From Moniliella sp. 'wahieum' (Eukaryota): DNA of 64,000 nucleotides. The translations under genes were made by a program, and so were the position numbers. The DNA lies in the NCBI GenBank assembly GCA_003971905.1, contig RSEE01000076.1, positions 186,001-250,000 on the forward strand, written 5' to 3'. A model generated the notes under the pieces. That model was not told the DNA's origin and did no database searches. It was given only the letters and a program-made list of their open reading frames with translations. Positions 5,701 through 60,748 of the stretch are shown in pieces. Position 1 is the stretch's first letter; every line of letters starts with the position of its first letter.

Positions 5701-6593
5701 AGTAAGAGCTTTGAGCCAAAGGTGACGAAACGGCAGGGCTCTGGACCCGGGGAAGAGACTGTGTCTGAGCTTGAGCACGAGCTTGCGCCTGGGCCTGGGC
5801 CTGAGCTTGCGTGAGCTTGCGCCTGAGCCTGAGCCTGAGCTGAGCCTGAGCCTGAGCCTGAGCCTGCGCCTGAGCCTGCGCCTGAGCCGGGGACTGACCC
5901 TGAGCCTGAGCCTGAGCTTGAGCTTGAGCTTGAGCCTGAGCATGCGCTTGAGCGAGCTGAGCTTGGCGGAAACGCTCTTGCTGGAGACGGAGCTGTGTCT
6001 GCCTCTGCTGGGCATACGGGTCCGCCTGGTCGGGGGGAGAGATGTGCTGCGCCTGAACTTGAGCTTGAGCTTGAGCTTGAGCTTGAGCCTGAGCTTGAGC
6101 CTGAGCTTGGAGGTGGGCCTGGGCGGCTCGAGCTTGAGCTTGCATCTGCTGTTGCTGGTAGAGCGGCGCAAAGGAAGGGATGCCCGCAGGGTATGAGTCG
6201 TGAGAGGGAGAGGAAACATGGAGGCGGACAGACCCAGCGCCGACGCCTGGGGATGGAGACGACCAAGTTACCATCAGGAAGACGGGGGAGGGGAACGGCG
6301 GCGGCGGCGGCGGGCACCGCCTGGGCTGGGACAACGACGTGGCCCTGCTCCATCAAGAGCTGGAGCGGGGTTCGTGCCCCGCCCTCCCGCGCCGAAAGGG
6401 CAACAGCCTGGAAAAGCAGCCGACGCGGGTCGTTGCCGCTGGGGGCGTTGGAGGCGGGGGTGGGCGTGGGGCCAGGGGTGCCGGTGCCGGTGCCGGTGGC
6501 CGTGGGGCTGGCGGTGCTGGGGGCGGGGGCGGCATGCCCGACGGCACCAGCGCCAGGGCCTGCGCCAGGCGCGGCGGCGTACTGCGCATGCAT
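2719..6593 (-). CDS. SNF5: SWI/SNF chromatin-remodelling subunit Snf5 (with intron(s) and apparent indel errors)
   Basis: Snf5 repeat 1 [31 protein letters not shown]; repeat 2 DLRIPIK|intron|[40 protein letters not shown]-terminal QA-rich region; C-terminal WHCAICG and [10 protein letters not shown]...HLKNRSH modules. Start codon approximate. Confidence 0.88.
5765..6142 (-). repeat. Gln-Ala (CAR-GCT) coding repeat within SNF5
   Basis: Long runs of TGAGCC/TGAGCT hexamers on the + strand translate as QAQAQA on the - strand. Confidence 0.9.
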
Positions 6594-8149: not shown

Positions 8150-8222
8150 GTAACCATATCATGGACAGGGCTTAAGGCTGGGACAGGGAAACGCTGCGCC
8201 TACTAAAACCGACCCGCTCATC
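8150..8222 (-). repeat. Fragment A of a dispersed degenerate coding repeat
   Basis: The 26-mer GCTTAAGGCTGGGACAGGGAAACGCT at 8170-8195 is identical to 44309-44334 and 44372-44397; the flanks are also similar. Confidence 0.85.
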
Positions 8223-13165: not shown

Positions 13166-14009
13166 CTACGCAAACTCTGGACGGCAAAAGTCACCGGACC
13201 ATAAGGCTGTGTGCGAGAGAGGGAAAGAAAAAAAAATCAGCAAAAGGCAAAACAAAAAGCAGAACCTACGCACCTCGGTAGTGAGCGTCTGTTGGTTGTT
13301 GAGGGGTTCTGCGCTAATACGGCCGTTCAGAGGCCCTCCTTGACGGGTTTTCCCGCCTTGAGGTCATCAAGGAGCTTGACGACTGTCTCAGGGGTCAAGT
13401 CTTCGTAAAAGTCGTCGTTGATCTGGATCATGGGCGCGTTGGAGCAAGCACCGAGGCACTCCACCTCAACCAAGGTAAACACCTTGTCTTCGGTCGTCTG
13501 ACCCGGTTGGATGCCCAAGTGCTTAACGATCGCCTCGAGGATCGCTGTGCTGCCCACGCCGCCGAGCATGCAAGGGGTGGTGGTGCAAAGCTGGAGGAAG
13601 AACTTGCCGACAGGATCGCGGTTGAACATGTGTAGAATGTGGCGACCTCGTACACGCGCATCGGGGGCATGTCGAGCAACTTGGCCACATAGTTCATGCA
13701 GCTGATGCTTGTCCACCCCCCGTTCTGGCGCTGGGCCAAGTCGAGCACGGGGATGACAGCGGCCTTCTTGTACTGGGGGGGGTAGCGGGAGATGACCTCC
13801 TGGGCCTTGGCCATGTGGGCATCGTCAAATTCAAAGGGGATGCTGGGGTTGTTGATGGGCGAGTCGCGATGGACAAAAGGTGGTCGGAACGGAGCGCTGG
13901 GCTGGTGCTGAGGGCACGCGCAGGCAAGGCACCGCCGCGGCAGACAAGCGCGGAAGGAGCGCCGCTGAGCGCAGCAAGGTGCGGGGGAAGCAAGACGCAA
14001 TGCAGGCAT
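13166..14009 (-). CDS. NDUFV2: NADH:ubiquinone oxidoreductase 24-kDa subunit (NDUFV2/NuoE homologue)
   Basis: [69 protein letters not shown] ([2Fe-2S] cysteines); short 3' intron. Confidence 0.95.
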
Positions 14010-15838: not shown

Positions 15839-17160
15839 GTCTGGACAGGAGTCGTGGCAGCGCTGTGTGAAAGCTCTGATGGGATGGGTAAGAAGAAGGT
15901 GCAGTTCAAGGTCAAAGAGAGGGGCGTTTCTTATTTCTTCCCTTGTTCGTCGAATGTCATGCGTGCACTACTATACCTTGGTCTGGTTCTCACGGTTCAG
16001 CTCAGCTATGTTGATGTTTGTACGGCAGAGGCGCATGCCTGCCCTGCCTGCCAGCGCCCCGCCGGAGCATCCCGGGCGTCGGGGCTTGGGCGGCTTAGCC
16101 GGGATTAATGGAGAATGGTTGTCCGCGTGTGGCTAGGCCGGCGTGGATGTGTCTGGGCGGGATGGGGAATGGGCAACTCATGGGTTTCACAGTGGATGGA
16201 GACTCTTCGAGACCCTTCGAGACCCTCCTACATTTGATTTTTGGCGATTTAATCAGATTGCAGAACAAGCAAGCCGGCGCAACGGCACGCGCGGGCACGC
16301 CAGGGCACTGCCAACGGAGCCGCGTTTGCAGGAAGGCCACAGGACCCTTCTTGGACCCTACACCCTCCGGCCACTCCCGACACGGACCACCACGAGCACA
16401 CAGAACCGCAGTGTGCACCGGTGCCTGCGTACACTCGTCTTGAAGCCAGAGCCAAGGCCTCAGGTACTCGTTACTCAGTAGCTCAACATCACCTCCGTGT
16501 ATCAACAGCGCCATCAGGCATCAGCGCATCGGCCAGCGCTGAGCTCAGCACCTCAGTGCGCCACCAGCGCGCGTCACGCGCATCAACATGCTTGAAGCTT
16601 GACATGTGACATGCTTGACATGGGACATGTGACACCCCAACAATTACTCACCATCTCAGCACCAACAGCAGCACACTACCCAAACCGAGTGTTCTAAACG
16701 CTTTCTCCGCAATCGCAACCGCGCGCGCGGGCGCCCGAACACATTTACTGGCTCAGCGTGCGCTCAACACGTTCACAACCGTTACAAGAACAAGTTGCAT
16801 ATCACTGTGTTCCGTGTTGCACACGCTTTTTACGCTACAGCAACATCCATATCCTTGACTTTTTGCTGTGTCCTCTTCCATCCCTTCCCCCCACCCCTTC
16901 CCACCACCCTTCAAGCTTCATTCAAGATTCTTGTACCAACCAGTTACCTGTTCTCGGGACCAACAAGAGCCAACCTACCTGCCAAAAGAGACGCGCGAAG
17001 CGGGTACGTGTTGGTCCAGGATGGGCCTGGGGAGCAAGGCAGTGGGGGATAGGTTAGCCATCAGGAGATGGGCATGTTCAAGTGGCATGCGCATACAAGC
17101 ACCGAGCCTAAACGTTTTCCACTGCCGACCAAAGTCGCGGCCATGGGCAGCACTCTGTAC

Positions 17161-18430
17161 TTATGGCTCTGTGTACTCTGGGTTGGACACCCAACCCAAG
17201 TCCAGCCAGCAGCTAAACGAGCCAACAAGGGACAAGAAGAAACAACAACAACAAAACCTGATTTTGGGAAACCTACTGAGCCCCACCAAGATCGATCGAC
17301 CAATCAAGGCCGAGTATGGGGAGGGCATAGATCTTGAGTGTGGTGTCCCAACCAAACAGGGCAGGGTCTCAGGAAAATGCTCGCCAAACCCACGCGTCAA
17401 GGTCGTCCCAGGCGAAAGGACAATGTTGGTTTACAAGTCCCGTCGCAAGTCCAGGTTGACACGGAACACTCTGTCGTACACCGCCTGGTGAACAATAACT
17501 GGGTACTGGAGCCCGACTAGGTCCGGGTTGAACAGGATCTCCAGCTCACGGAAAAGGGTTCGGGCCCGAGCCACGCAACAGGTACCGTGACCGGGTACCG
17601 GGTACCCGGTAGCGCTCAGCGTCATCCCTCGCCCCACCCCACTCCTCTCCCCGTCCCTCAGGGGGAAGGATACCATGCACCTTGGCGCTGTTTCCATCTG
17701 GGAGTTTGAATTCTTGGGTTTCGTGCGAAGTGCCAACATTGGTTTCTGCCTTGGCCTGGTTGAAGGGGGCTTAACCGCACTGTTCTTCTTTGATTGTCGC
17801 ATCACATCTTTATCTGCCAAGAGGTGCGGAGGCTCTTGATCCGTACCCTGTGGAGTCTTGCATCGGCACCTGCTCCACCACATCCCTCCTGGCCACGTCG
17901 ATCCTGCGCATAGCGTGGGGCATCGAGAACTAAGCCGGTAGTGGGACCTGTCGAGAGTAGAGGGTCAAGATGGCTTGGATGGAGGTAAAGACCACAAGTA
18001 CGTTGACCGTTTGGAAAGGCACTTGGGCTGCAACCTCGCAGGTTTGGCGTGGGTTGAGTGATGAGTACTGAGTCACAGTACTGAGCGGAGCCTGGGTGAG
18101 CAACACGGTATATGCCTCCGACAAACCGTCTTCAGTTCCTCGTCGTCAATGTGGGTCAAAATGTTTCCATGTCTTCCCAGTCGGTCATCAAACGTCATGT
18201 TCCATTGGGTAGCGGACCTGGTGCAGCCCGCGCAACTCTTCTGCCCGACAACCAACGAACATGTATCGCCCCTCTATGCCGCCCACCATGACGCGCGGGT
18301 ACTTGGGTCGGCCCACAAACTAAAGAAGGGAAGAAACAGTTGGGCTGCTCCTAGCCAGCAAAAAACCACTCTTAATGGTGCCTGCTCCATTGTCGATGAC
18401 GACACGACGGCTGGTTGGTGGGCAGTGGCG
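17161..18430 (-). pseudogene. ARP1: Decayed, intron-retaining ARP1 (centractin/actin-related) pseudogene
   Basis: Collinear fragments VVIDNGAGTIKSGF; VLLTQAPL[insert]NPR..QTVNV..FTSIQAILTLYS; EFKLPDGN; LEILFNPDLVGLQYP..VNLDLRRDL*TNIVLS.GTTLTRGFGE; KIYA; YSALIGRSILVGLS; WVSNPEY. It has an in-frame stop, many radical substitutions and insertions, unlike the indel-only damage in neighbouring genes. Confidence 0.8.
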
Positions 18431-19349
18431 TCGGCAAAGTTGCCGGGTGTGCTCAGGGATGGGTGCTGTTGTTGGGGGAGGAGCGGCACAGGAGCAGCAA
18501 GCACTCCGGTGGATGCACACCTGTCTCCCCTAGGCTGGTAGGCTCAGTGGGACGTAAGAGGGCGGTACGCCTCACGGCTTTAAGCTTTATGGGCCTTGAG
18601 CCTAAGCCTTGGGCCGTAGGCCTTGTGAAGCTAGCAGGGGTGGCATTGGTGCTACGCTGTCTCCCACTCCGCCTGTAAATTCCGCCGGCACGAAGTGCAA
18701 TTAATACAGCTCCTGCAGCCATGTCGATGACTGATGAACAGCTTCATCGACTTCATCGTTGGACTTCAACTTCATCCAAGTTGATAACCGGATGAACTCT
18801 AAGAACAGTGAATCGATGAACGTGGAACTTCAACTTGAACGTTGAACCGATCAGATGATCGATAACTTCATCGTTGACTCAATAAACTTCATCGGGTTCA
18901 ACTCACCGCGTGTCTTCGTCCACATGGTACACGTTGAACGTTGAACTTCAACGTTGAATTGAGGGCGAAGAGGCTGAAGCCCGCAACCACGTTTATGGGC
19001 AGCACCAGGCAGCGAAACTCTATAAGCAACAAACAACTTACCCGGGGGAGAAAAAGAGGGAGGGCTAGGGAAAATGGTTCGTTGGATAGGAGACGGGGCC
19101 CGAAGATGAGACCGTTGCACAAAAGACAAGAAGACTGGGATGGAACTCAACCAATAGGCAAAAGTGTATCGCATCAAGGATGCCAACCAACTGCTTGCAA
19201 CAGCTCTGGACCCTCAATGGAGGATGGGAGGAAATGAGTAGAAAGGTGGAGGAAAAGAGTAAAGGGGATGGTTGGTTCCGGGACCAAGCTGCCTCTGCCG
19301 AGGTTGCTCAGTCAGGGAGCTTTGGGCAAAGTGCTCAGCGGCTCGGCCT

Positions 19350-20533: not shown

Positions 20534-21833
20534 GGTGGCTGGCAGGGGGGGGGGGGGGGAGGGGGCGCTGGTGTGGGTGGAGGAGCAGGGGTGCGCTCGG
20601 CGGCCTGCCGATGTGTGTGGCCGATGCGTGGCACATCAAGCTGAAGTCTGGGCGTGACCGGTGACGGGGAGCGCTCAGGCTGAGCACGGCTGGCTCAGGA
20701 GCTGACGTCAGCCAGGGCAGTTTGGCGGACCTAGATCCCAATAACCCCTTTCGGCCTCAGGCGTGCCAAGGTTTTTAGGAACGGCGAGGGTTGAAGTCCA
20801 ACATTCAAACGTTCAGCGTTGAAGTTCAACTTGAACATCCAACGCACATCCCGCATCGTCCATCGCAGATCGTAATCTCCCGCGCTGACGTACGCGCATC
20901 GATGTGCTTTCACTGTTTCAATGCTCCTGCTTCGGCCGCGATTGACGAGCTCAGGCACCAAAGTGCTGGGAGAAGTTGCGATGGCGAGCGTCGCCCGTGA
21001 CCGCGTTGTGGCCATACACGGAGCTTTGCAATGCGAATCTCCTTCCAAGGAAGGCTCAGAGAAGAGCATAGCCGGTGTAGGTGGCTGCCCCGCAACGGCT
21101 ATTGCAGTGAGATAAAGGCCGAACGGATATTCCATCCCATCAGCAATTGTGCATTAGTATATAGCCACACAATCGTCGTCATATATATAGCACTCCTTTT
21201 TCAGCATCAGGCCCTAAGAGTAAGGAACACCAACTAGAGATCTTTTGGGGTGTGTATCTCGACAGACCATCCACTACCGCATAACAAGCAAGTGTGTGAT
21301 GCAATCGCTTGTGACATAGAAGCACAAGGTGCTATATGGATCGCGCGATAGCAATATCGTGTGTTAGTACTCCACACATACTATACGCAAACAGTCCGCG
21401 GGCCCTCATCGGCCCATCGCTTTACCACAAGAGCCGAGATGGAAAGGGTGAAAATACGAACACATCAGGTACGAATATGGAGCTTCAAGCTTCATTACTC
21501 ATTGTTGAAGCACGCGGTGCGAAGAAAAGTCCATCATGTGATGGTCGGACAAGCGCTGTGAGCGCCACACAGGGGTTGAAGCTATCATCACCACATTTAT
21601 GTTTTGTATGCAGTCCTGTTGTGCTCTACTCTGTAGTGTAGCTTAAACATGCCCCAGGAACGCTGTCACGCACTATAGATTGGGGCATGGTGTTTGTTAC
21701 CCTCGGATAGAGACATCTCTATACCGAGATTATCATTCCATATGCCTTGACTCATGCTTATAAAACGAGTTTTCTCTCTCTGTGCCACAGACTAAACCTT
21801 CCTTCTTCCCCCCCATTAACGACATTTAACGGC

Positions 21834-23756
21834 ATGCCTTTCACCGTGCGCCCTCGCCGACGCCATCGTCACCTGCGGTGGCATACGTCCCAACACCGTC
21901 TTCGACCCTCGAGCTGAACAGGTATCCGAGCTGGACGAAAATCCCAACAGGACGAAAAGTTTGAAGAGAAGGTAGAGGTCAAGCTAGCGCGGTGGATCGC
22001 TTTGCCGGCAAGGTTAAAACATTTGGCGACCTCTCCAACATTGATCCCGACGTTGCGAAGAAACTGTTCGATCAGGATGAGGTGAGAGAAGCGTTCACCT
22101 CCCGCCAACTGGCCATGATCTCCCTTGCTGGTACGTTTCACAACACCCTCATGTGATGACTTTTTGTCGTCAAGGATCGAGGATTAATGAATGACTTTTT
22201 GCTGTGATGCAGGTTCGGTGGGTACAGTGTCTTCCTTGGAGTGGGAAAAGCTTTGGCCCATGCAGGCCCCCTTTCCCTGTTCCTCGGGTACTTGATTGTG
22301 GGCGTATTTGCCTGCTCATGCTCTTTTGTCAGGCAGAGGTACGTCTCTTATACTACCCGAACCTCTCTCTTCGTATACTGCCACTGCCGATATAGAGACT
22401 GACTTATGATTTATTAATAGCTAACCACCTGGCGCCCGTGAGCGGTTACTATGTTCGACACGCAGGAATGTTTGTTCCCAAGCACTTGCTTTCTCATCTG
22501 GATGGGCCACCGTGTACGGTTCTTTCGTTGGCTTACCGGGCGAGATTTCGGCCGCGTCGGCGCTAGCGCAGTACTGGAACTCCACACTGAATCCGGCGGT
22601 GATCGTGTCCATTTTTGGTGTAGTGCTCATGGTCTCCACGCTTCTTTACACGTCTACAGCGAGACAGAGTACGCATTTTCTATCATCAAGCTTACTACTG
22701 CGATTGGGCTTGTGATCTTCTGCATATGCATCGATCTTGGTGCCGGGCCTAACGGGCACATGACTGGATTTCAATACTGGCGGAACCAGGCCCTATGGTG
22801 TCGTACCTCGCCAAAGGGTCAGCTGGCCGTTGGTATGGTCTGTGGTACACACTCACCAACGCCGCGTATAGCTACCAGGGTATGGAGACCATCTGTGCGG
22901 CCGCAGCTGAAACGAGGAACCGCGCCAAGCCTTACCACGAGCAGCCAAACGCGTCTTCATTCGTGTAGTTGCAATCTACCTCTCGCTCGTTTTGTGTTGG
23001 CCTGATTGTCCCCTCTAATGACCCGCGTCTAATCAGCTCTTTGGGTAACGCATCAGCATCTCCCTTTGTCGTGGCTGCCACCAATGCCGGGGTGAAAGGC
23101 TTGTCAAGTCTACTAAATGTGGTTTTTATCACGTCCGCCTACAGCTCCCTCTCGTCGGGCACGCTATCTGGATCCCGCTCGGTAATGGCTCTGGCCAACA
23201 TGGGGTTTGCCCCCAAGATCTTCCGCAAAACCCAGGTGGGGCGTTCCCTATGTGGCAATCCTTGTCGTCATCGCTGGGTGGCCCTTGGGGTACACAGCAG
23301 TCAGTTCAAGTGCAACCAACGTGTTTGGGTACTTCCAAAGCTTGACTGCATCCTTGGCACTGTACCAGTGGTTCGTCACATGCTTGATTTTTCTCCGAGT
23401 ATACTATGCCATGCGAGCACAAGGGATTCCCCGTTCAGCGCTCCCGTGGCAGGCGTGGGGGCAGCCGTATTTGGGATGGATTGGATTGGCTGGCTCCTTT
23501 TTCTGTCTTATCACGGGCGGGTTTCCCTTCTTCATCCCCGGTAACCAAGAGCCACAGACGTTCATTTCGGCCTACTGTGCTCCCATCATCAATGTTTTCC
23601 TTCTGCTAGGATACAAGTTTTACACTGGCACCTCTCTGGATCCCACTCAAGGATGTCCCAATCCAACCATGGCTCACACGCAGTACCGTCAAAACCCGGA
23701 GCCAGAAGAACCCAAGCCCAAGGGGTGGATTCATCATCAGTTGGATTTGGTTCTAG
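21834..23756 (+). CDS. Amino-acid permease (APC/YAT family, proline-permease-like)
   Basis: RQLAMISLAG|SVGTVSSL; PGEISAASALAQYW; ETEYAFSIIK; GFQYW; YSYQGME; VGLIVPSNDPRL..ASASPFVVAA; APKIF; GVPYVAI; WGQPYLGW. Contains introns. Confidence 0.88.
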
Positions 23757-29276: not shown

Positions 29277-29891
29277 TCGACTGCCTTCCAAACTGGCACA
29301 ATGTTATGCCATCAACGCATTCTGTGTACGTCAGCCATAGGATAACAAGATGTCCGTTCCCCCTGAAAGGGGGGGGGGGGGGATTACTGCATGCACAACG
29401 CGATGCACCATAGAACGAGTCGCTGTGAGCAAATTTGCAGCTCTTTTGATGTCACGACTGAAGATACTACTGCTGTCACCCCATCACTGCCTTACACGGC
29501 GTTCTCTCTGCTGTTGTGGATGTTGGCCGGTAATGAATGTTGCTTCTTTTGGACTTCGCTCGAACCGCATGCGCTTTTCTTCACGCGAGAATGGCGGGTC
29601 TCCTGATTGGGCTTGGTCGTGAAATTCGGAACCTGTATTCCTCTCCATCTGTTGCTTACCCCCTGTGCTCGCCATCTGTGACTTCGTGGGCGTCACGCGT
29701 CACCTCGTTCCGTTCTGCCAGGCGGGAAGGTTCGTATTTGGTCGTGCTTCTCGTACCTCTCCAGCGATCTCGGTGTTCTCGGTAATCTCCAAGAGTCGGA
29801 AGAAGAGCGTAAGATGATAACTCCCACGGCAGGCAACCCGGTTTTCGCTGAAGTATGACGCTTTCGCACCCTCATCCTCGTTGGTCTTCTC

Positions 29892-30046
29892 CTCCTCTTC
29901 CTCTTCCTCTTCCTCTTCCTCTTCCTCTTCCTCTTCCTCTTCCTCTTCCTCTTCTCTTCCTCTTCCTCTTCCTCTCCTCTTCCTCTTCCTCTTCCTCTTC
30001 CTCTTCCTCTTCCTCTTCCTCTCCTTCCTCTTCCTTTTCCTCTTCC
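29892..30046. repeat. (CCTCTT)n polypyrimidine hexamer microsatellite
   Basis: About 150 bp of near-perfect CCTCTT repeats. Confidence 0.95.
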
Positions 30047-32702: not shown

Positions 32703-33050
32703 GAAGAGGACGTTCTTCCCTCTGGTTTTGACGAGACGCGAGGATACTACGGTACCAAGACAGCGGGCAAGATATTTGCGCATTGGAAGAATTTGGCTAC
32801 TGAGAGTCTCAATGGAAATGGTTCCTCGCTCGGATGTCTACCACGTTCATCCGTGTCCACACGCGCTTCCTAAGGTACGGGACCGGATGGCGACCACCGG
32901 AGGGTCCTGATATCCTGGCGATCCCCCTGGTTCCTTAATCTTGGTGGCTCTTCCAAGTAACCCCCGCAGATGAACGGTTCGGTTTAGACGTAGCGTTCCC
33001 CCTGTCCCAGCCTTAAGTTCTGTCAATGGTATGGATGCAGAAGAGGATGA
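32703..33050 (+). repeat. Fragment B of the dispersed degenerate coding repeat
   Basis: Reverse-complement homology to about 44345-44685 along its length (e.g. CAAGACAGCGGGCAAGA, TTCATCCGTGTCCACACGC, TGGAAATGGTTCCTC, CTGTCCCAGCCTTAAG). Confidence 0.9.

Positions 33051-34905: not shown

Positions 34906-34934
<29 letters not shown>
34906..34934. repeat. Poly-G run of about 29 nt
   Basis: Read directly; length is unreliable in long-read data. Confidence 0.85.
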
Positions 34935-38490: not shown

Positions 38491-40579
38491 ATGGACGATG
38501 CGCTGCTGGGCGCCCAGCTCCAAGCTGCCGCCGCGGAGCTCCTTCCCCACCGCCCTCCCTCGGCCGGGCCCAACAGCAACCCCTCTTCTCCCTCAGTCCT
38601 CCTCGCCTCCCCACCGCCCTGGCCCAACTCGGCCTCGACACGCGCACCAGCGACGCCGATGCACTGCGTCTGCTGAAGCGCCAGCAATCCATACGCGCCT
38701 CAGTCCGCCGCCGCTCTCCTTGCTGCCGGAGGGCGTCCGGCTCCCGCCATCGCGCACTCCCGACATCTTTGCCACCGCCCTCACCTCTTAATCTCGCTAG
38801 CCCCCTGTCCTCTGCGTCTCCTACCTATCCTGCCTCTTCCCGGCTCGTGCGCCTGCCCAATGATGGTCCCGATGCTCCTCCATCCCGCACGTCAACCCCT
38901 CAGGTTGCACCCCCTCATCGCGCTGAGACGATGCCCGATGAGCGACTGTATGCTTCCACCGCACTCGGCGTGCCCCGCACCCCGAGTCCACGCCTGCCGC
39001 GTGCCCCTTCTCCCGGCTCGCCCAGCCACCCAAGTCCACTGTCTCTGCAGCAGAGTCCGCGGTCCCAGCGAGATGAAGAACGGGGACACGCCTCACGTCT
39101 CCCTATGGCCACGTACCCTTCCGCCCCGGACCCGATCGGCCTGGCAGCCGAACCCCCATCGGTCGCACCAAGTCCCCCCTCTTGGACGACGCCTTTAAGG
39201 GCATCTGGCTCAACTCGCGGGGTGAAAAAGTGGTGGAGGGGCAGGTGGTGGGCACACTGGACTTGGCGCCCTACCGATCCCGTCCTACCTCGCCTCAGTC
39301 CCACCACGGTCTGAGTCCCGCTTTCACCCGGCTGCCCTCGCCGCTATCGAGCGACAAGTCGTCTGCGTGGAAACTGTTGGAAGAGACACCAGGCTCGCGC
39401 GACCCCCACCTCTCAAGCTCAGCATGCGTATACCCCCCTTTTTCACCCACACTTTTCCCCATGCCATCCCCGGTCGACGGGGCAGCCTGGACTTGAGCAA
39501 CCCGACGGCCGCGCGCAATCTTCTAGTCCCACAAAGAACGATAAGAGAGGCAAGTCCAAGATGCCGTTCTGCTTCAGTCCCATCCGATGCCTGCGGCAGC
39601 TCTGCGAGCACGGATATTCTCAGCCCCCTGCACCATCGTCGGATACCTTACTTTTACTGCCCGACCCGGAGCGTGGCGAGCGTGATTCGCGTTCGGTGCC
39701 TACCACACCCCACCTGGGCCGGTCGAGGAGCACTACGCCTGTGCCCCTTTTGTCCGACGGGATGTCTTCGTCGGGTGTGGCGTGGGCGTCGGAGTGGAAC
39801 CGTCTTCTTCTCAGGTTGGTAGCCGCTGCCAACCCACCACAACCCGACTCGCAACCCGACTCGCAACCCCACGATCGCCTCGAACCTCATTCTCGTCGTA
39901 GCTCTGCCTCATCGGCTGCCTCCTCTCTCGTCTCGCTTCCGGTATCGGTGGTGACAGTTGCATCTGAGGGTCCGTTTGCCGAGCCCCGTCGGCGGCCAGC
40001 CAAGTGGGCCACGTGGTTTGCCGGGGTGGGTACCAACCTGTTTGGTGCGCGTGCGCCCGCTCCGCCGGCTCCGTCCGCTCCCGCCGCCTCGGGCGCATAT
40101 TTACCCACGAGGTGCGCATCCGGGGCTGGTCCGAAGTAGGTGGGGGGTGGGCGGGTTCGTGGTCTATCATGTTGTGATTGTGCTCAAGACGGGTCGAAGA
40201 TTGAGTTGGTAAAGCGGTACTCGTCGTTTGTTCGGCTGCGGCAAGCGTTAGCGACGGAACGGCCGGATGCGGCGGGGCAGACTACCACTCGATCGGCACG
40301 TCCGCGTTTGCCCGCCTTGCCTCCTAACACCCGCTACACAAGTATGCGGCTACGTATCTCGAGACGCGACGACGTACGTTCTGCTGCTCTGTTGTTGAGT
40401 GCTGACTAGGGACTAGTTATTGGTTATTGCTGCCAAGTCTGCCCTCTGCCCCGTACTGAGTACTGATACTGACCTTGATCTTCCCCGGCGCACTCCAAAC
40501 GTGGCTTAACACAATCATGCTGGACCCGGTTTGGGCCTCGTGCGCTTCGTTGCAAGAGTGGATTGTGGATGCTGGGTAA
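38491..40579 (+). CDS. PX (phox homology) domain protein, Ypt35-like, with long low-complexity N-terminus
   Basis: FVVYHVVIVLK.GSKIELVKRYSSFVRLRQAL..LPALPP, and a final exon LQTWLNTIMLDP..SLQEWI typical of PX domains. Confidence 0.7.
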
Positions 40580-42918
40580 GACCGATAAGAGCCAAGAGCG
40601 GGTTCGGCCGAGACGGCACCCCGGCTGCCCACACGCGCGGTAATAGTGACACGTGATACGCATGCTCTGCCTTTTGGCGTTCGGATCCGAGTACCGATTC
40701 TTTACCCCTTAGATATCCCCGCCTAACCTTGTTGGTTCTGAATTGGACTGTCGACGTTGCGTTGATGATGCAAGATGCATGATGATGATGACGGATGGAT
40801 GGATGGATGGTGGATGCTGGAGAGTTCTGAGATGACGGATGCTCGATGCACCCCTTGAAGCTTGACCTCCATAAGCTCCCATGCATCCTGGTCGATGGTG
40901 TGTGTAAGATGAGGCCATGGGCGAGGGGTGCGATCGAAAGGTGACCGTGAGAGGGCGAGGAGGCCGTCACCGCGTCACCTGAGAGCGGTCGGGATCGTCG
41001 AGAACGTTACGGCGTTTGCGTAAGCGTTTAGACTTTAACGTTTTAGCGTTTAAGGTTTAACCCCCGCATAGCTACGAGCTTGCAAAATGGGCTGGAGACC
41101 TGTGCACTCAAAATGTGTACAAGAGAATCTGAGCAAAGTGAGAGAAGCTTTTATATAAGTTCTGATGTCAGGCCGGCTAAGCGCTAATCCAATCTTACGT
41201 GCCAGAGGGAGAGAAAAGGGAGAAGGAGAGGGAGAGGCGCGCCGCTGTCTGGCTGGATTCGGTAGGCTCGGGTCGCAGAACGCAGCGGCTCTTCACTTAG
41301 CGCTTACTGGGCTTTTGGCGCTTAGCGCTTAGCTTACCGGTTACCGGTTACCAGCGACTTGGCTGGTACAACCATGCCAACTGAGTGGTGCCACATGCCA
41401 TTTCGCATAATACACTCTAACAGATGGCGAAGATAATGCTAGAGATGCTAGAGATGCTAGAGATGCTACACATTGGGGGGGGCCGTGGGGTGTAATGGCA
41501 CCGGTACCCCAAGCGTGTGGTCCCCCGTTCCGTGCATTCCTTCCAATATTCCTTCCTGGAGGGCAGGAATATTCTCTGGATATAGCCTCTGTAGCTCATG
41601 TGCAATGCCAAATACACCATCATGTCAACTGTGCCCGCAATGCTCTCTGTCTTCTACAAAGAAATGGAATAGATGTAACAGATGGACAGAACAGATGGAA
41701 CAGTTGAATGGAACAGCAGAACGTGTGCGTGGATGCATCTGGCATCTGGCATCTCTATCTCCCCATACGGGGGGCAGCACTACGCCCCTCTGACAACGCG
41801 AGCTTCTCTGGTGCTCGGGACTCAGTACTCAGTGTACTCACACGCGTTTTTCCGGGGGCTTTCCTTTTCGGGGAATTGAGGTGGGGGGAGCCGGTGGCCT
41901 TGTCCCGTAGGGTCTTTCTAGGACGCCCGCAGGTCTCGCCGCCATCGCCGCGCCCATGTCCGGGAGAGTGGGCTGGTGCGGTGTGCTGCATGATTGGCTG
42001 GGATCACGATCACGCGTCACGCCGATCATGATCGATTACGTCGATCACATGGGACATGTGATGTCGCAGCCCGTGTCACGTATATCACATGTCACATGTC
42101 ATATTCATATGGCATGCCAGGGCATGCCCGCCTTGCCTGCCGCCTGCCGCCCCGCCTGCCCAGCCACGGCCAGCCTCCTTTGCAATAGTGATACACTAAT
42201 CGACACGCCAAGCCATGGCTGGCACGGACATGACATTCACATTGCTCTGGGCCCCCGTGCGTATGAGCAGCAGTCTGTCTGCCCTGCGGCCTCGCGCAAG
42301 CAAGCGCGCACCAGCGGGTATAGCACGCCGCGGAGCCGCTGAGCGACTTGGCGCTCGCTTCTCACCACTGGTACTAGTTGCTGACGCTCAGCCCTCCCCG
42401 CTCGCTTCTCATCAACTCATCACTCGCGGCTTGCTCAGTATTCGGGACGCACCACTGGGCGCCTGATGGGTGCGATATCTGGTTGGCTGGGCCCAAACCG
42501 CCATATATCAATCCCGCGGCTCAACGTTTAACGTTTTAACGTTCAACAGTGCCCAGACGCCGTGGTTTCGGCAGCGATTTCCGTCTTCTTACATGGCCGA
42601 CGGCCATACCCACGGAACGTCGACCCAGCTTGTGGTGCGGGGCCCCTCAGGCCCTTCAGGCCGCAGGATAACGCGCCACAGGGTCACGGTCACGGGCCAC
42701 AGGGTTTCGGGCTGCAGGGTCTCGAGCTAACCTGTCTAGCCCGAGCGAGAGACTGGTCACTACTGACCCATATGTCCGCCCAATCAGCCCATCTTTTTGT
42801 CATTTCCTCTGCGTGGCAAGTCCTTGCGGACATCCTCTGCTTTACTCTTAAACCCCCTCGCCACCCCCCTTTGACCTTCCTACTCCACACGCGTCGCTAC
42901 ACTTTTGCCCCCACCTCC

Positions 42919-44280: not shown

Positions 44281-45010
44281 CTTCTGCATCCATATCATTA
44301 TTGAAAGAGCTTAAGGCTGGGACAGGGAAACGCTATACGCCTCTCTTCTCTTCATCCATACCATTGACAGAGCTTAAGGCTGGGACAGGGAAACGCTACG
44401 CCTAAACCGACCCGTTCACCTTGCGTGTGTTGCTTAGTAGCGCCACCCCTCCGTTAAGGAACCAGGGGAATCGCCAGGAGATCAGGACCCTCTGGTGCCC
44501 GCCATCCGTTCCCACACCCGAGGTAGTGCGTGTGGACACGGATGAACGTGGTTGACATCCGAATGAGGAACCATTTCCATGGAGAGTCAATAGCCAAACC
44601 CTTCCAGTGCGCAAACATCTCTTGCCCGCTGTCTTGGTTCCGTAGTATCATCGCGTCGTCAAAACCAGGGGGAAAACGGCTCTTGAGTGCGTCCCCGTCC
44701 TTGGCGTTCTTGTCGCATTCTGCTTGTTCCAGCAGCCGAAGCAGCTCCTTCCCCCGGCGTTCCAGAGGCGTCGCGGTGCTGTAATGCACCACCCTCCGGT
44801 ACGCACTCTGCGCCTCCTGCGTTCCCGTGTCGCGCAGCGGGTGGTCCACCTCCATTCCTGATCATCCGATTGCTCCAGACCCCATCACGCGGTAGTTGGT
44901 GCGCTGTGCCCTCCGTCCGCACCTCGTCCCACCCTCTAATAAAGTGTGATGGGTATACAGATAGGTTGATCAGGCTGATCCAGGACGCCTCAGTGCGCTG
45001 GGTCATTGGG
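44281..45010 (-). repeat. Fragment C (longest) of the dispersed degenerate coding repeat, with an internal tandem duplication of about 63 bp
   Basis: Homologous to 32703-33050, 8150-8222 and 62480-62600. Residual frames QSAYRRVVHY, FPPGFDD..QDSGQEMFAHW, GVAFPCPSLKLCQWYG. Confidence 0.85.
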
Positions 45011-46209
45011 CAAGGCATTCCGGACGCGCTCCCGGCCTCCTCTCCCGGCCTCCCCTTCCTCTCCTTTACTTCGTGTTCAGTGTGTGTCGCGGCCACCACG
45101 CTTGTCGCACTTCACTCGATTCAGTACTTTACTATCGCCCTTATTTTCTGGTTTGCTACTCAGGAAGACACTAACCATGAGTGCGGCTAGTATGAGACCC
45201 ACAGCGCAAAACAGTAACTGTCTCTAATACCTCGTCTGTTTAGCTCCTGTGGGCTTTGGTGAGATCCAATCGCTAGTCGACACAATACACAATATTTGGC
45301 CACAGTGACGTATTGAGCTTCCTTTTCTTTCTTCCTTCCTTCCCTGCCTGACTAGTGACTGCCCTCAAAAGTGCTAAACGAGCTGCTAAATTCGCTCATC
45401 TCTTCGCTTGCGACCTTCCAAATAAACGAGAGGGCATCCCTGCGACCAAGGTTGCTTTGGCGAAAGGTACTGGAATATATCCTTCTTGCCCATATTACTA
45501 CTCTGCCTTACTAGGGGAGAGTAAGAGAAGGTTGTTTGGGGGTTGTAGCATCGGGGTATCTGGCCCGGCCTGGGCCACAGTAAGTTCTCGCTCACACGGA
45601 GGATGAGGACGGCGAGGTCTCACCAAATCGGATTGCCATGTAGTAAGTAGCTTACACGCAGAGAACAGGTAGGGTGGGATTCGCGTCGACCGCCATTACT
45701 GCGGCAGCAGAAGAGAGAGATGATGCTATGGCCATGACCACTGGAGAACCCTGCTGAGCAAGCGGGATGCCATGGTACAGCCAACTAGAGATCATGATCA
45801 CGAACGTACCGGATTTGACCCAGACATGGGCTCACGCGCCGAAGTACAAGAGAAAAACGGAGAGAAGTAAACACTACTACACCGGTCCCCCTCGTCCACT
45901 TGCCGCCGCCAGCCTGGCCTAGAAGACGAGGAGGGCGGGTCGAAGGAGGAGGGGGTATTGAGATCCATCAGTTGATCGTCAAGCTTCATCGACCATCGAT
46001 CGACCATTGCTCATGCATCACGCATCACCCGTGGCAGATGGGAGGTGCGACGGTCAGATGTCACGTGTCACAACCCTAGCCGCCGAGCCCGGTGCACAGG
46101 CGGGACACTGACGTAGTGCTTTCCGCCCGCACGGACCGTTGCGCGGGCGAGCTGAGCCGCTGGAGCTTGCTGCCGCCCCACCACCGCCTCCCCCTGCCTG
46201 CCTGTGCCG

Positions 46210-47830
46210 ATGGAGAGCCTGGATTCGTCAGTGACGGCGTTGGCGGCGCTACTGCGCCAGACGCCGCCTGGGCAAGTGGCCAAGGTGTACCATGACCTGC
46301 GTCTGTTGCTCGAGGGCAGTGCGGTACCCGCTGCGTCGGAGCAGTTGCGCGCGGCAGCCTGGCCCGTGCTGAGCCAGTACAACACCGAGCAACTTATCAC
46401 TGTCAAGCCCCCCGACCAACCGGGCGCCGCGCCAGCCCATCCGCTCATCATTTCCCCCGCTGGAATCATCTCTCCCTCTACCACCGATGCCGACACGGAG
46501 GAGGCGGCACGCTTTGCCGACCCGCGCACCCAGACCAGTTATGCGTTTGACCCTCTCCGCTTGGTACGTTGGACATTGGGCCCTCTCCCCCCCTCTCCCC
46601 CTCCCTCCCAGCACGAACCAGGTCCTGGACTGACTCAAGGGCGTGTGTGAATGTCCTGCAGCGCTTGTCAGATCCACAGCCGATCGTAGTGAACGAGGCG
46701 TACGAGCAGTTACGCCAGGCCCTCGATACTGCCGCGAGCCAGTACGCGAGCCACTTTTACCAAGATGGCGTCACGTGCACCTTTGTCCAGGCCGCGGTCG
46801 AGCCCGAGGCAGAACCGGAGCCCGAGCTGCCGACGGAGCCAGCGGCGGATGGTGTGGATGGCGCAACGGAGGTTGAAGTCCAAGCGGAGAAGGAGGGCCA
46901 TGTACCGGTTCCCCAACCCGCGGAGGCAGAGGACGCTGACGTGGCTGGAGAGTCGGATCCGACGCTGGCAGCGCCCAAGGCGGAGTTGGAGACAGAGTCG
47001 TTCCAGGAGCAGGAGAAGGAGGAGGCGCAAGAGGAAGCACAGGACAAGGCGCAGGAGGAGGAGCAGGAGATACTTTCCTAGCCAAGGAATTGGAACAGAC
47101 TCACCTGGACCCTGAAGGCGCTGAGCAACAGGCCAAGATTGAGGCGATCGAGCGGGGTCAGCCTGGCGACCTCCCGAGCCCAGGAGAGGAAGGCAAGGCG
47201 GAGGAGCAAGTGGAAGCACAACCGAAGCGGAAGCCGAAGCGCAGCCCGTTTCGCCAGCTGCACCTCGCGTCCCCTCTGGCGCACCCACGTTTACCGTACA
47301 CTTGGTTGGCAACCGGTACAACCTGGTCAACTTTTGGGCTGGCCGGTGGCGCTCCAGCTACGTGTTGGCCCTGCCTAGTGCCGCGGAGGCCGCGGAGGCG
47401 GGGACGGAGATCAAGTCGGTAACGGTGCGGGGTACGGTGCAAGTGCATGTGCATTACTTTGAGGAGGGAAATGTCCAACTGTCTGCCGAGCATGCGCCCG
47501 TGCTCACCGTGCCGACGCAGGTGGATGTGGCAGCGGTGCTGGCTGGCTCGGCGGCGGGGGAGGCGTACACAACCTTAGCCAACGAGGTGGTGCGTGCGAT
47601 CAAGGCGGACGAGCAGGCGTACCATGCGGCACTGGAGACAACGCTGACCGAGTTGTCGGAACGTACGTTCCGCGCTCTGCGTCGGCAGCTGCCTGTCACC
47701 AAGCAGAAGGTTGACTGGAATCGGGTATGTGGCGCTCCTCCTCCTGTGGCGAGTTGTGGAACTGACGTGTAGGTACGTGCTTGTGTCGCAGGCGGTGAGC
47801 TACAATCTGGCGGACGACCTCAAACGGTAG
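46210..47830 (+). CDS. CAP1: F-actin capping protein alpha subunit
   Basis: LLRQTPPGQVAKVYHDLRLL; YNTEQLITV; LVGNRYNLVNFWAGRWRS; VQVHVHYFEEGNVQL; FRALRRQLPVTKQKVDW. Confidence 0.92.
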
Positions 47831-59748: not shown

Positions 59749-60748
59749 GTTGGTGCTTCGTCTAGTGGTGTGGGGATGAGGGGGGAGGGGGGATAGGGAC
59801 GCAGTAGGGTGGTATTACTAAGTACTTCTCAATATGGTATGCTTTGTGGGCGAACAACGCAACAATGGGGGCCGGGAGAGGAGGGGGGGGAGAGAGGAGG
59901 GCGGCGCACGGGCGGGGCCGGAGCGGCGGCAGGAGGTGTGTGACATGTGATGCGGCCCAAGGCCACGGACCACGACGCTCCCCACGCGTCCCCGTCCGTG
60001 GACCGGAGTGCACATTGCGGCATGTGGATGAGGCGGGCCGGTGGAGGGGGCGGCGTGATGGTCGATTGTGGAAGCGCAGGATGCGGCGTTTGGTTGAGCC
60101 GGCGATGAGCGGGGGATGCAGATGGGCAGAGGCGAAGCTGGCGAAGCTAGCGAAGCTTGAAGAGGGCCACGGAGTGCGGAGTGTGCGTAGTGAGTACGAA
60201 AACGTCTGTAGACTGTGGACTGAGTACTGAGTACATTTGCCGCTGGCCAGCAGCTGTGTGTGCGTGCCTGTGTGCTGACGTCACTGTCACATGTCACCCA
60301 GCCCGCCGCTGAACATTTCAGCTGGAGCTCATGCGTCTGGCTCTCGCACGGAGGCCACAGGGGCTGTGCACACTGGCCAGATGCGGCGATGCCCGCCGAG
60401 CCACTCGATTCCGAGGCGCTGCGACTGGCAGTAGGAGGGCAGTGTCTGGGGGAGCGTCCGTGTCACATGTCACATGCCACATGCCACGTGTCGACTATCG
60501 GTTCAATATGCAATGCCCGCTCGGCGCCAGCCAGCCGTTCGCCCTCGCTTCGTTCCGCACAGCACCGCACAGCCTCGCACCGCACCGGCCACTACTCAGC
60601 ACTCGGCCTGTGTGCTCAGCCACTCAGGTGAACCTTCCAACGCACCAACACGCAGTCTGTGTACTCGATCCAACCGCAAGAGCAACACATCCGAGCTCCG
60701 CCACACCCACACAACTACTCCCCCTCCACCACACCTACCACCTCCCCC

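Follow-up and report, generated by a model that had tools for sequence, protein, structure and literature searches.

An ARP1 pseudogene interrupted by a 27-nt insertion

The DNA analysed here (the window) is a 64,000-nt stretch of the basidiomycete fungus Moniliella sp. 'wahieum' (assembly GCA_003971905.1, contig RSEE01000076.1, positions 186,001 to 250,000; coordinates below are those of the window). At 17161..18403 on the minus strand lies what we read as an unprocessed pseudogene of ARP1 (centractin), and 27 extra nucleotides at 18059..18085 (minus strand) interrupt its conserved LLT(E/Q)APLNP motif. We describe the host gene and the insert, and a class of short insertions with a T-N-A trinucleotide (N being any base) to which the insert probably belongs.

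To establish the identity of the host, fragments of the pseudogene were compared with solved structures, protein collections and full-length relatives. Two fragments scored higher against Arp1 chains than against the best actin among solved structures: 42.1 versus 28.5 bits for 18188-18319, and 27.5 versus 23 bits for 17930-18145. Taken singly, the short fragments gave no match to the Pfam Actin model within E 0.01. A 72-residue read-through fragment (TAG entered as X), scanned with HMMER against 1.84 billion representatives, returned 416 proteins at E <= 0.001; another homologue search returned none for a 71-residue fragment and two for the 72-residue fragment. When three full-length representatives were run against the window by tblastn, coverage extended from 18403 to 17167, aligning residues 15-370 of a 381-residue relative. 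With P0004 the alignment had E 1.9e-35 across 18403-17678 and a second high-scoring segment pair extended it to 17167; with P0048 the values were 6.7e-32 and, for the second segment, 7.8e-12. The host is evidently an Arp1-type gene, closer to Arp1 than to conventional actin, as the initial annotation had proposed.

The gene is also evidently dead, because it carries four nonsense codons in the homologous frame, that frame shifts about 9-10 times, and about 16 residues are missing after LYS. The nonsense codons are TAG at 18353-18351 (in FFAG*EQPN), TGA at 18158-18156 (where W is expected), TAA at 17773-17771 and TAA at 17433-17431 (where Y or F is expected). Some of the frameshifts could be assembly errors, since single-base frameshifts in short homopolymer runs are also found in an otherwise well-conserved NDUFV2-like 2Fe-2S subunit gene (13600-13660, minus strand, about 13630) and in an amino-acid permease gene (23200-23260, plus strand, about 23232); these two reflect either indel errors in the assembly or lesions that arose very recently. 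No such error bears on the deletion, the nonsense codons or the invariant residues that have been replaced.

The tblastn segment pairs are broken between 17678 and 17553, where about 110 nt of extra sequence follow LPDGxxxKV (LPDGNSAKV here). The predicted proteins P0003, P0004 and P0056 enter non-homologous tails at the same point, and we place the relic of an ancestral intron at 17573..17680 (minus strand, boundaries approximate). A 45-nt GT...AG block between FPKI and WVSNPEY (17213..17257, minus strand) is a candidate second relic. From the extra sequence after LPDGNSAKV and this GT...AG block, the pseudogene is read as unprocessed and intron-retaining, with intron boundaries that we infer.

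The insert is derived

The minus strand reads GCT CCG CTCAGTACTGTGACTCAGTACTCATCA CTC AAC CCA, as the initial annotation had quoted; that is, positions 18085..18059 are CTCAGTACTGTGACTCAGTACTCATCA, with GCTCCG on one side and CTCAACCCA on the other (plus strand 18059-18085, TGATGAGTACTGAGTCACAGTACTGAG). The 27 nt are in frame and stop-free and add STVTQYSSL, the frame reading LLTQAPL-STVTQYSS-LNP. Using phmmer against solved structures, a 9-residue gap falls exactly between LLTEAP and LNP of Arp1; using tblastn with the three full-length relatives, it falls between APL and NP. Alignment to relatives, which had been suggested as the way to define the insertion boundaries, places the 9-residue gap and leaves the exact boundary ambiguous across a repeated CTCA. 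One copy, at 18055..18058 (minus strand), is the ancestral Leu codon plus the A of the Asn codon; its direct-repeat partner at 18082..18085 (minus strand) forms the upstream end of the insert as a 4-nt junction repeat. In line with the proposed re-use of the local CTCA, a CTCA/TGAG direct repeat bounds the insert.

To determine the ancestral state of the motif, we examined 155 relatives (150 representatives and 5 others, a set not narrowed to basidiomycete ARP1). The motif was present in 30 and read P-L-NP in every one, with one residue between P and NP; the other 125 proteins are fragments or diverged and lack the region. Solved Arp1 and actin chains also lack the nine extra residues. Together these comparisons argue that the 27 bases are a real and derived insertion and, since the ancestral sequence of the motif is known, as had been claimed, the polarity is fixed as insertion rather than deletion. 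A metagenome scan for alleles carrying 0-30 bases at this site gave no matches.

Two simple origins for the block were tried and rejected. A spliceosomal intron is ruled out at 27 nt without GT...AG boundaries, the sole inner GT...AG pair spanning 14 nt. A donor elsewhere in the window is likewise rejected: the best local match, at 16459-16488, scores 29, a value that the best of 30 shuffles also reaches, and its flanks are unalignable. The 16459-16488 segment is itself a degenerate ACTCAGT-type element ending in CTCAAC, with 24 identities in 30 columns to the insert plus flank.

The insert had been called palindromic, with two AGTACT sites in it. Both are present, at 18064 and 18077. Over its full length the insert has only weak palindromic character: it folds into a 7-bp stem with a 5-nt loop (18064..18082, minus strand, 18076-18082 pairing with 18064-18070, so spanning 19 of the 27 nt) at -5.1 kcal/mol, with a z score of -1.94, and 7 of 200 shuffles fold as well. 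The repeat signal is modest too. The strongest autocorrelation of the 40-base region is at lag 7 (identity 0.45), a value matched by 73 of 1000 shuffles, and Tandem Repeats Finder at score 30 does not report the site, where the longest perfect run is 12 nt (1.7 units).

T-N-A-centred 7-base units recur across the window

The initial annotation had linked the insert to intergenic arrays, quoting CTCAGTACT at 41821 and GAGTACTGAGTAC at 60222. Both strings were found, and repeat scans show the ACT-N-AGT unit of the insert in three plus-strand arrays: (GTACTGA) x3 at 40453..40472, ACTCAGT x2 at 41820..41833 and ACTGAGT x2.3 at 60219..60234. The ACTGTG that lies beside ACT-N-AGT units was treated as chance, ACTGTG/CACAGT occurring 27 times in the window.

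To place these arrays in context, period-7 repeats were counted across the window, a single 64-kb sample, with expectations taken from 30 order-3 Markov simulations. There are 51 perfect period-7 arrays of at least two units, against 4.2 (standard deviation 2.5) expected; for period 8 the figures are 9 and 0.8. The units are interrupted palindromes in 25 of the 51 (chance 10.4%), and 24 of these 25 have T-N-A at the centre, the exception being ACCGGGT. The only C-N-G-centred palindromic heptamer array of the 25 is (GGTACCG) x4.6 at 17581..17611, within the probable intron relic of the pseudogene. The remaining 26 period-7 arrays are non-palindromic, and the longest arrays of the multi-unit kind reach 3.7 units.

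The same preference is seen when pairs of T-N-A trinucleotides are examined irrespective of tandem repetition. The window holds 169 TNA-N4-TNA decamers, and the N4 is palindromic in 68 (chance 6.25%). In 59 of these 68 palindromic links the same N stands on both sides, and in 44 of the 59 it is C or G. The excess is confined to spacers of four bases: palindromic spacers number 31 of 92 at length 2 (chance 25%), 3 of 133 at length 6, and 0 of 102 at lengths 8 and 10. It is also confined to T-N-A, nine other trinucleotide frames giving 4-24 palindromic spacers among 124-418. Hexamer palindromes of the A..T class occur at 1.59 times expectation and those of the other three classes at 0.87-0.99 times. 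The window as a whole thus gives very strong support to the idea that the arrays are seeded at T-N-A.

Counting palindromic period-7 runs centred on T-N-A, we found 56 of at least 12 nt, where simulations gave about 0.95 on average. As 32 of them are only 12 or 13 nt long, most members of the class have fewer than two units. Their junction tetramers comprise 13 of the 16 possible. Imperfect relatives are also in excess: 65 sites satisfy all seven constraints (0.3 expected), 61 satisfy six (5.4) and 140 satisfy five (44.1). The runs crowd in the DNA between genes: the first 2 kb hold 10, and the intervals 30-32 kb and 40-42 kb hold 6 apiece. Where the coding sequence of the window's genes aligns to Pfam families (9,062 nt), 7.9 runs would be expected and none of the 56 is found (Poisson P 0.0004). 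A class of T-N-A-anchored elements therefore exists in the window, follows a definite rule, is abundant, and is absent from coding sequence.

Several dense clusters were noted. There are 11 T-N-A heptamer elements in about 1.5 kb at 760-2290, and within compound clusters at 1356-1404 one TGA is repeated with varied palindromic spacers (TGCATG, CATG and CGCG). Upstream of the pseudogene, at 18740-18960, TGA/TCA and ACGT/AGTT units are densely packed and include a 12-bp perfect palindrome, TTCAACGTTGAA; a 19-nt partner with 95% complementarity lies at 20812-20830, on the far side of an RVS167-like gene.

The elementary product is a 12-mer

To define the unit event, we compared the two bases outside each T-N-A with the junction tetramer in the 46 single-link chains, a match being expected by chance at 1/16 per side. 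The outer flank matched the tetramer on one side in 31 chains, on both in 8 and on neither in 7. From this one-sided dependence the elementary product is a 12-mer, which begins and ends with the same pentamer W (T-N-A and the two bases beside it on one side) and carries P, the inverted complement of those two bases, in the middle (W5-P2-W5). Two kinds of target duplication are rejected by the same counts. A 7-bp duplication predicts that both flanks match, as found in 8 of 46; a 3-bp duplication with two bases left from each transposon end predicts no flank dependence, as found in 7 of 46.

An unbiased scan for W5-P2-W5 found 111 examples where chance would give 7.8; 71 of them have T as the first base and 76 have A as the third. 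As a negative control only, we scanned 80 unrelated environmental loci (653,944 nt), which are metagenome relatives, at no more than 64% identity, of the neighbouring 3-hydroxyacyl-CoA dehydrogenase; these held 189 W5-P2-W5 against 79.8 by chance. The 12-mers start with T-N-A in 59% of cases in the window and in 1% in the control loci. The dehydrogenase is itself 57% identical to its best named matches (Tilletiaria and Tilletia).

A compound cluster at 16590..16613 (plus strand), CTTGA-AG-CTTGA-CA-TG-TGACA-TG, illustrates the rule. There one TGA has served on both sides (CTTGA-AG-CTTGA and TGACA-TG-TGACA), the outcome expected under the rule from a seed CT-TGA-CA.

The insert belongs to the class through TGAGT-AC-TGAGT at 18062..18073 (plus strand), a canonical pentamer, 2-nt inverted spacer and pentamer; a 12-mer of the class was found in 8 of 50,000 random 27-mers of window composition. 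Its coding strand can be written GCTCA GT ACTGT G ACTCA GT ACTCA TC ACTCA|AC, the end being the ancestral CTC AAC. The insert therefore reads as a decayed four-link chain of five ACTCA pentamers with GT spacers, seeded on the ancestral (A/G)CTCA, and the region differs from a perfect (ACTCAGT) chain by five substitutions and one deletion in 35 positions. The chain junctions account for the AGTACT palindromes, which are by-products of pentamer duplication with a 2-base inverted spacer. The initial annotation had presented the array as caught in the act; with this degree of decay it is not. We infer that the seed was A-CTCA, i.e. that the ancestral Pro codon was CCA, where today it is CCG.

Origin of the insert and of the class

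Taking these results together, we consider it probable that the insert is a decayed short chain of the T-N-A class typical of this genome, which arose in an apparently intron-retaining ARP1 pseudogene, most probably after the gene was inactivated. Several points weigh against this. The 27 bases are in frame and stop-free, and so are compatible with an origin before inactivation. The fit to the rule demands an ancestral CCA Pro codon as well as the five substitutions and one deletion, the present flanks (GC-TCA-AC) predicting GCGC or ACGT junctions rather than GTAC. The period-7 signal of the insert by itself is weak. The insert is known from the assembly sequence alone, and the 1-nt frameshifts in conserved genes of that assembly mean that some of the pseudogene's own frameshifts may be errors. 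Finally, the class is defined from one 64-kb window. The core of the earlier proposal, a de novo origin of the insertion at a T-N-A in unconstrained DNA, is supported; the insert follows the rule of the class provided that the ancestral codon was CCA.

The following scheme would produce the observed structures. At a T-N-A, the pentamer formed by the trinucleotide and its two neighbours on one side would be written a second time, with a 2-base inverted copy of those neighbours set between the two pentamers, giving W5-P2-W5 and a net gain of 7 bases. An A-NNNN-T palindrome would arise at each junction; for the insert, W = ACTCA and P = GT would give AGTACT. Short period-7 arrays could then be built up by further rounds of the event or by slippage along the newly made 5-base repeat. 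In molecular terms, a frayed 3' end finishing in T-N-A might fold back, or switch to a strand of like sense, with T pairing to A across N. It would copy the two preceding bases and then return to the original template five bases earlier. The setting could be replication, or the repair of a gap or break. The near self-complementarity of T-N-A would account for the anchoring, and the length of the frayed end for the fixed 5+2 geometry.

A local copying error, as opposed to a mobile element or selection, is the part of this account that we rate above the specific mechanism. The fold-back and template-switch mechanism itself is put forward tentatively, as less likely than not, because one of its two switches lacks microhomology. 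Continual addition of elements, followed by their erosion, would explain both the decay series and the presence of a single chain in the exons of the dead gene (1.2 kb), which have gained only that one so far.

Among the other explanations, the one that fares best, though we think it unlikely, is that the elements are the excision footprints of a cut-and-paste transposon, either PIF/Harbinger-like or with a 5-bp target duplication. T-N-A is the target of PIF/Harbinger elements, and the trinucleotide is duplicated on insertion, as it also is by IS5-type transposases. In a first version, a PIF/Harbinger-like element would leave its 3-bp T-N-A duplication and two bases from each end; the match of T-N-A to that target, and the identical N on both sides of the tetramer in most palindromic links, speak for it. 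In a second, a 5-bp duplication would have its flanks hairpinned and opened 2 bases off-centre, adding P-nucleotides as hAT, Transib and RAG do, and W5-P2-W5 does resemble a 5-bp duplication with two P-nucleotides. Against both, the tetramer follows the local flank on at least one side in 39 of the 46 single links and takes nearly all possible forms, so it cannot be transposon-end sequence. There are always two palindromic bases, and they always lie on the far side from T-N-A, a regularity beyond that of known footprints, and the density would require about one visit per 200 bp of intergenic DNA. No terminal-inverted-repeat element was found among 25 of the 106 inverted-repeat pairs in the window.

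Ordinary microsatellite birth, by slippage on the local CTCA repeat followed by point mutation, would leave the palindromes and the T-N-A preference as by-products, reflecting the heptamers most prone to slip. The CTCA direct repeat flanking the insert, the existence of multi-unit arrays and the non-palindromic half of the period-7 arrays are all in keeping with this. Slippage cannot, however, generate an inverted 2-base spacer, and would not be expected to show specificity for T-N-A or for a spacer of four. Nor can the many runs of 12 or 13 nt be expansions of a prior repeat. We regard this explanation as improbable.

A third possibility, which appears very improbable, is that the arrays are selected cis-elements, such as sites for dimeric factors, and that the pseudogene received its copy by ectopic copying. 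The intergenic clustering of the runs is in its favour, and some of the hexamers have the look of factor sites, ACGCGT resembling a known one. However, the 13 junction tetramers obey one structural rule, one copy lies inside a dead coding region, and the window offers no donor for it. The annotation's view that the arrays are not selected cis-elements rests on one dated case and on the lack of class members in coding sequence, and other arrays may have been co-opted later. Equally little credence can be given to an assembly artefact, or to an insert or intron already present in the functional ARP1 of the lineage: the frameshifts elsewhere in the assembly and the in-frame length would allow it, but homopolymer indel errors do not resemble a complex 27-nt block, and this one falls far below the length of a fungal intron, lacks intron boundaries and is missing from every motif instance in the relatives.

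A broader reading, which we hold with less than even confidence, is that a sequence-anchored mutational process, still active in the lineage, keeps adding 7-base units, each with its inverted 2-base spacer, wherever DNA is unconstrained. Such a process might depend on fold-back of a polymerase at T-N-A, or on an enzyme that nicks T-N-A specifically and may descend from a Harbinger-type nuclease. If this were true, much of the intergenic sequence would be its product, at a density of about one element per 200 bp where elements are crowded, and the insert in the ARP1 pseudogene would be a dated example of it.

Implications and other features of the window

Small templated insertions are usually seen singly, at induced breaks, whereas here one precise rule covers dozens in 64 kb. 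Should the rule hold genome-wide, it would be a readable mutational signature pointing to a specific replication or repair step in this lineage. It would also mean that palindrome-rich promoter sequence resembling factor sites can arise without selection, which bears on how conserved-looking motif arrays are read.

The pseudogene raises a separate question, whether dynactin has been lost in this fungus or just a duplicate of ARP1. F-actin capping protein alpha is also a dynactin component, and an apparently intact gene for it at 46156-47769 bears on that choice.

Other repeats in the window include the hexamer arrays (CTGAGC) x32 and (TGAGCT) x9, at 5765-5953 and 6054-6109, within or beside an SNF5-like gene, and (TCTTCC) x28 at 29885-30046. 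A dispersed repeat of about 340 bp is present at 44349-44684 and 32704-33041 (84% identical, in inverted orientation), with a shorter third copy at 8154-8220 and no obvious terminal inverted repeats; comparison of the copies revealed no informative indels. Homopolymer G runs of 29 and 21 bases lie at 34906-34934 and 20545-20565.

Comparison with known systems

No T-N-A-anchored heptamer class, from fungi or from any other eukaryote, came up in a literature search, and the 7-base T-N-A insertion class is apparently undescribed. Period 7 is over-represented among the simple sequence repeats of intergenic DNA in bacteria, where the heptanucleotide repeats described are long G-rich arrays or palindrome arms, without a T-N-A rule in that account (PMC4692102). 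The present class is unlike them in all its structural features. With microsatellites in general the class shares a short period, head-to-tail units, confinement to unconstrained DNA and length variation by whole units. It differs in its 7-base unit with a fixed T-N-A and 4-base palindrome, in having mostly fewer than two units, and in an inverted 2-base segment that is beyond slippage.

The class also has features in common with the products of transposition and of hairpin opening. PIF/Harbinger and IS5-type elements duplicate the same trinucleotide, whereas 5 bases are duplicated here and N is mostly C or G rather than A or T. P-nucleotides at hairpin-opened ends occur in V(D)J coding joints and in the excision footprints of hAT and Transib elements. 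As there, two bases are the inverted complement of the adjacent end and stand beside an intact duplicated target; here they are always one-sided and always two, with no nibbling.

The nearest mechanistic parallels are with templated synthesis. To our knowledge, fungi lack DNA polymerase theta. In animals, snap-back synthesis in synthesis-dependent microhomology-mediated end joining and stem-loop extension by that polymerase have been described at induced double-strand breaks (PMC5728401, PMC2943611, PMC11292364). As these reports present it, a 3' end folds on very short complementarity, copies a few bases and yields templated, partly inverted insertions, as would be the case here; the present class differs in being known from a fungal genome sequence alone. 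Small inverted triplications (duplication-inversion-duplication, DUP-INV-DUP) of about 148/160/148 bp are described as arising through two template switches and are tied to Okazaki-fragment processing (PMC13334657). They share with the class a direct duplication with an inverted part-copy between, ascribed in that description to replication errors, and differ from it in scale and anchoring, the copies here being 5/2/5 bases and strictly anchored at T-N-A. On these comparisons the class is kin to templated small insertions and to short tandem repeats, possibly with a lineage-specific enzyme behind it.

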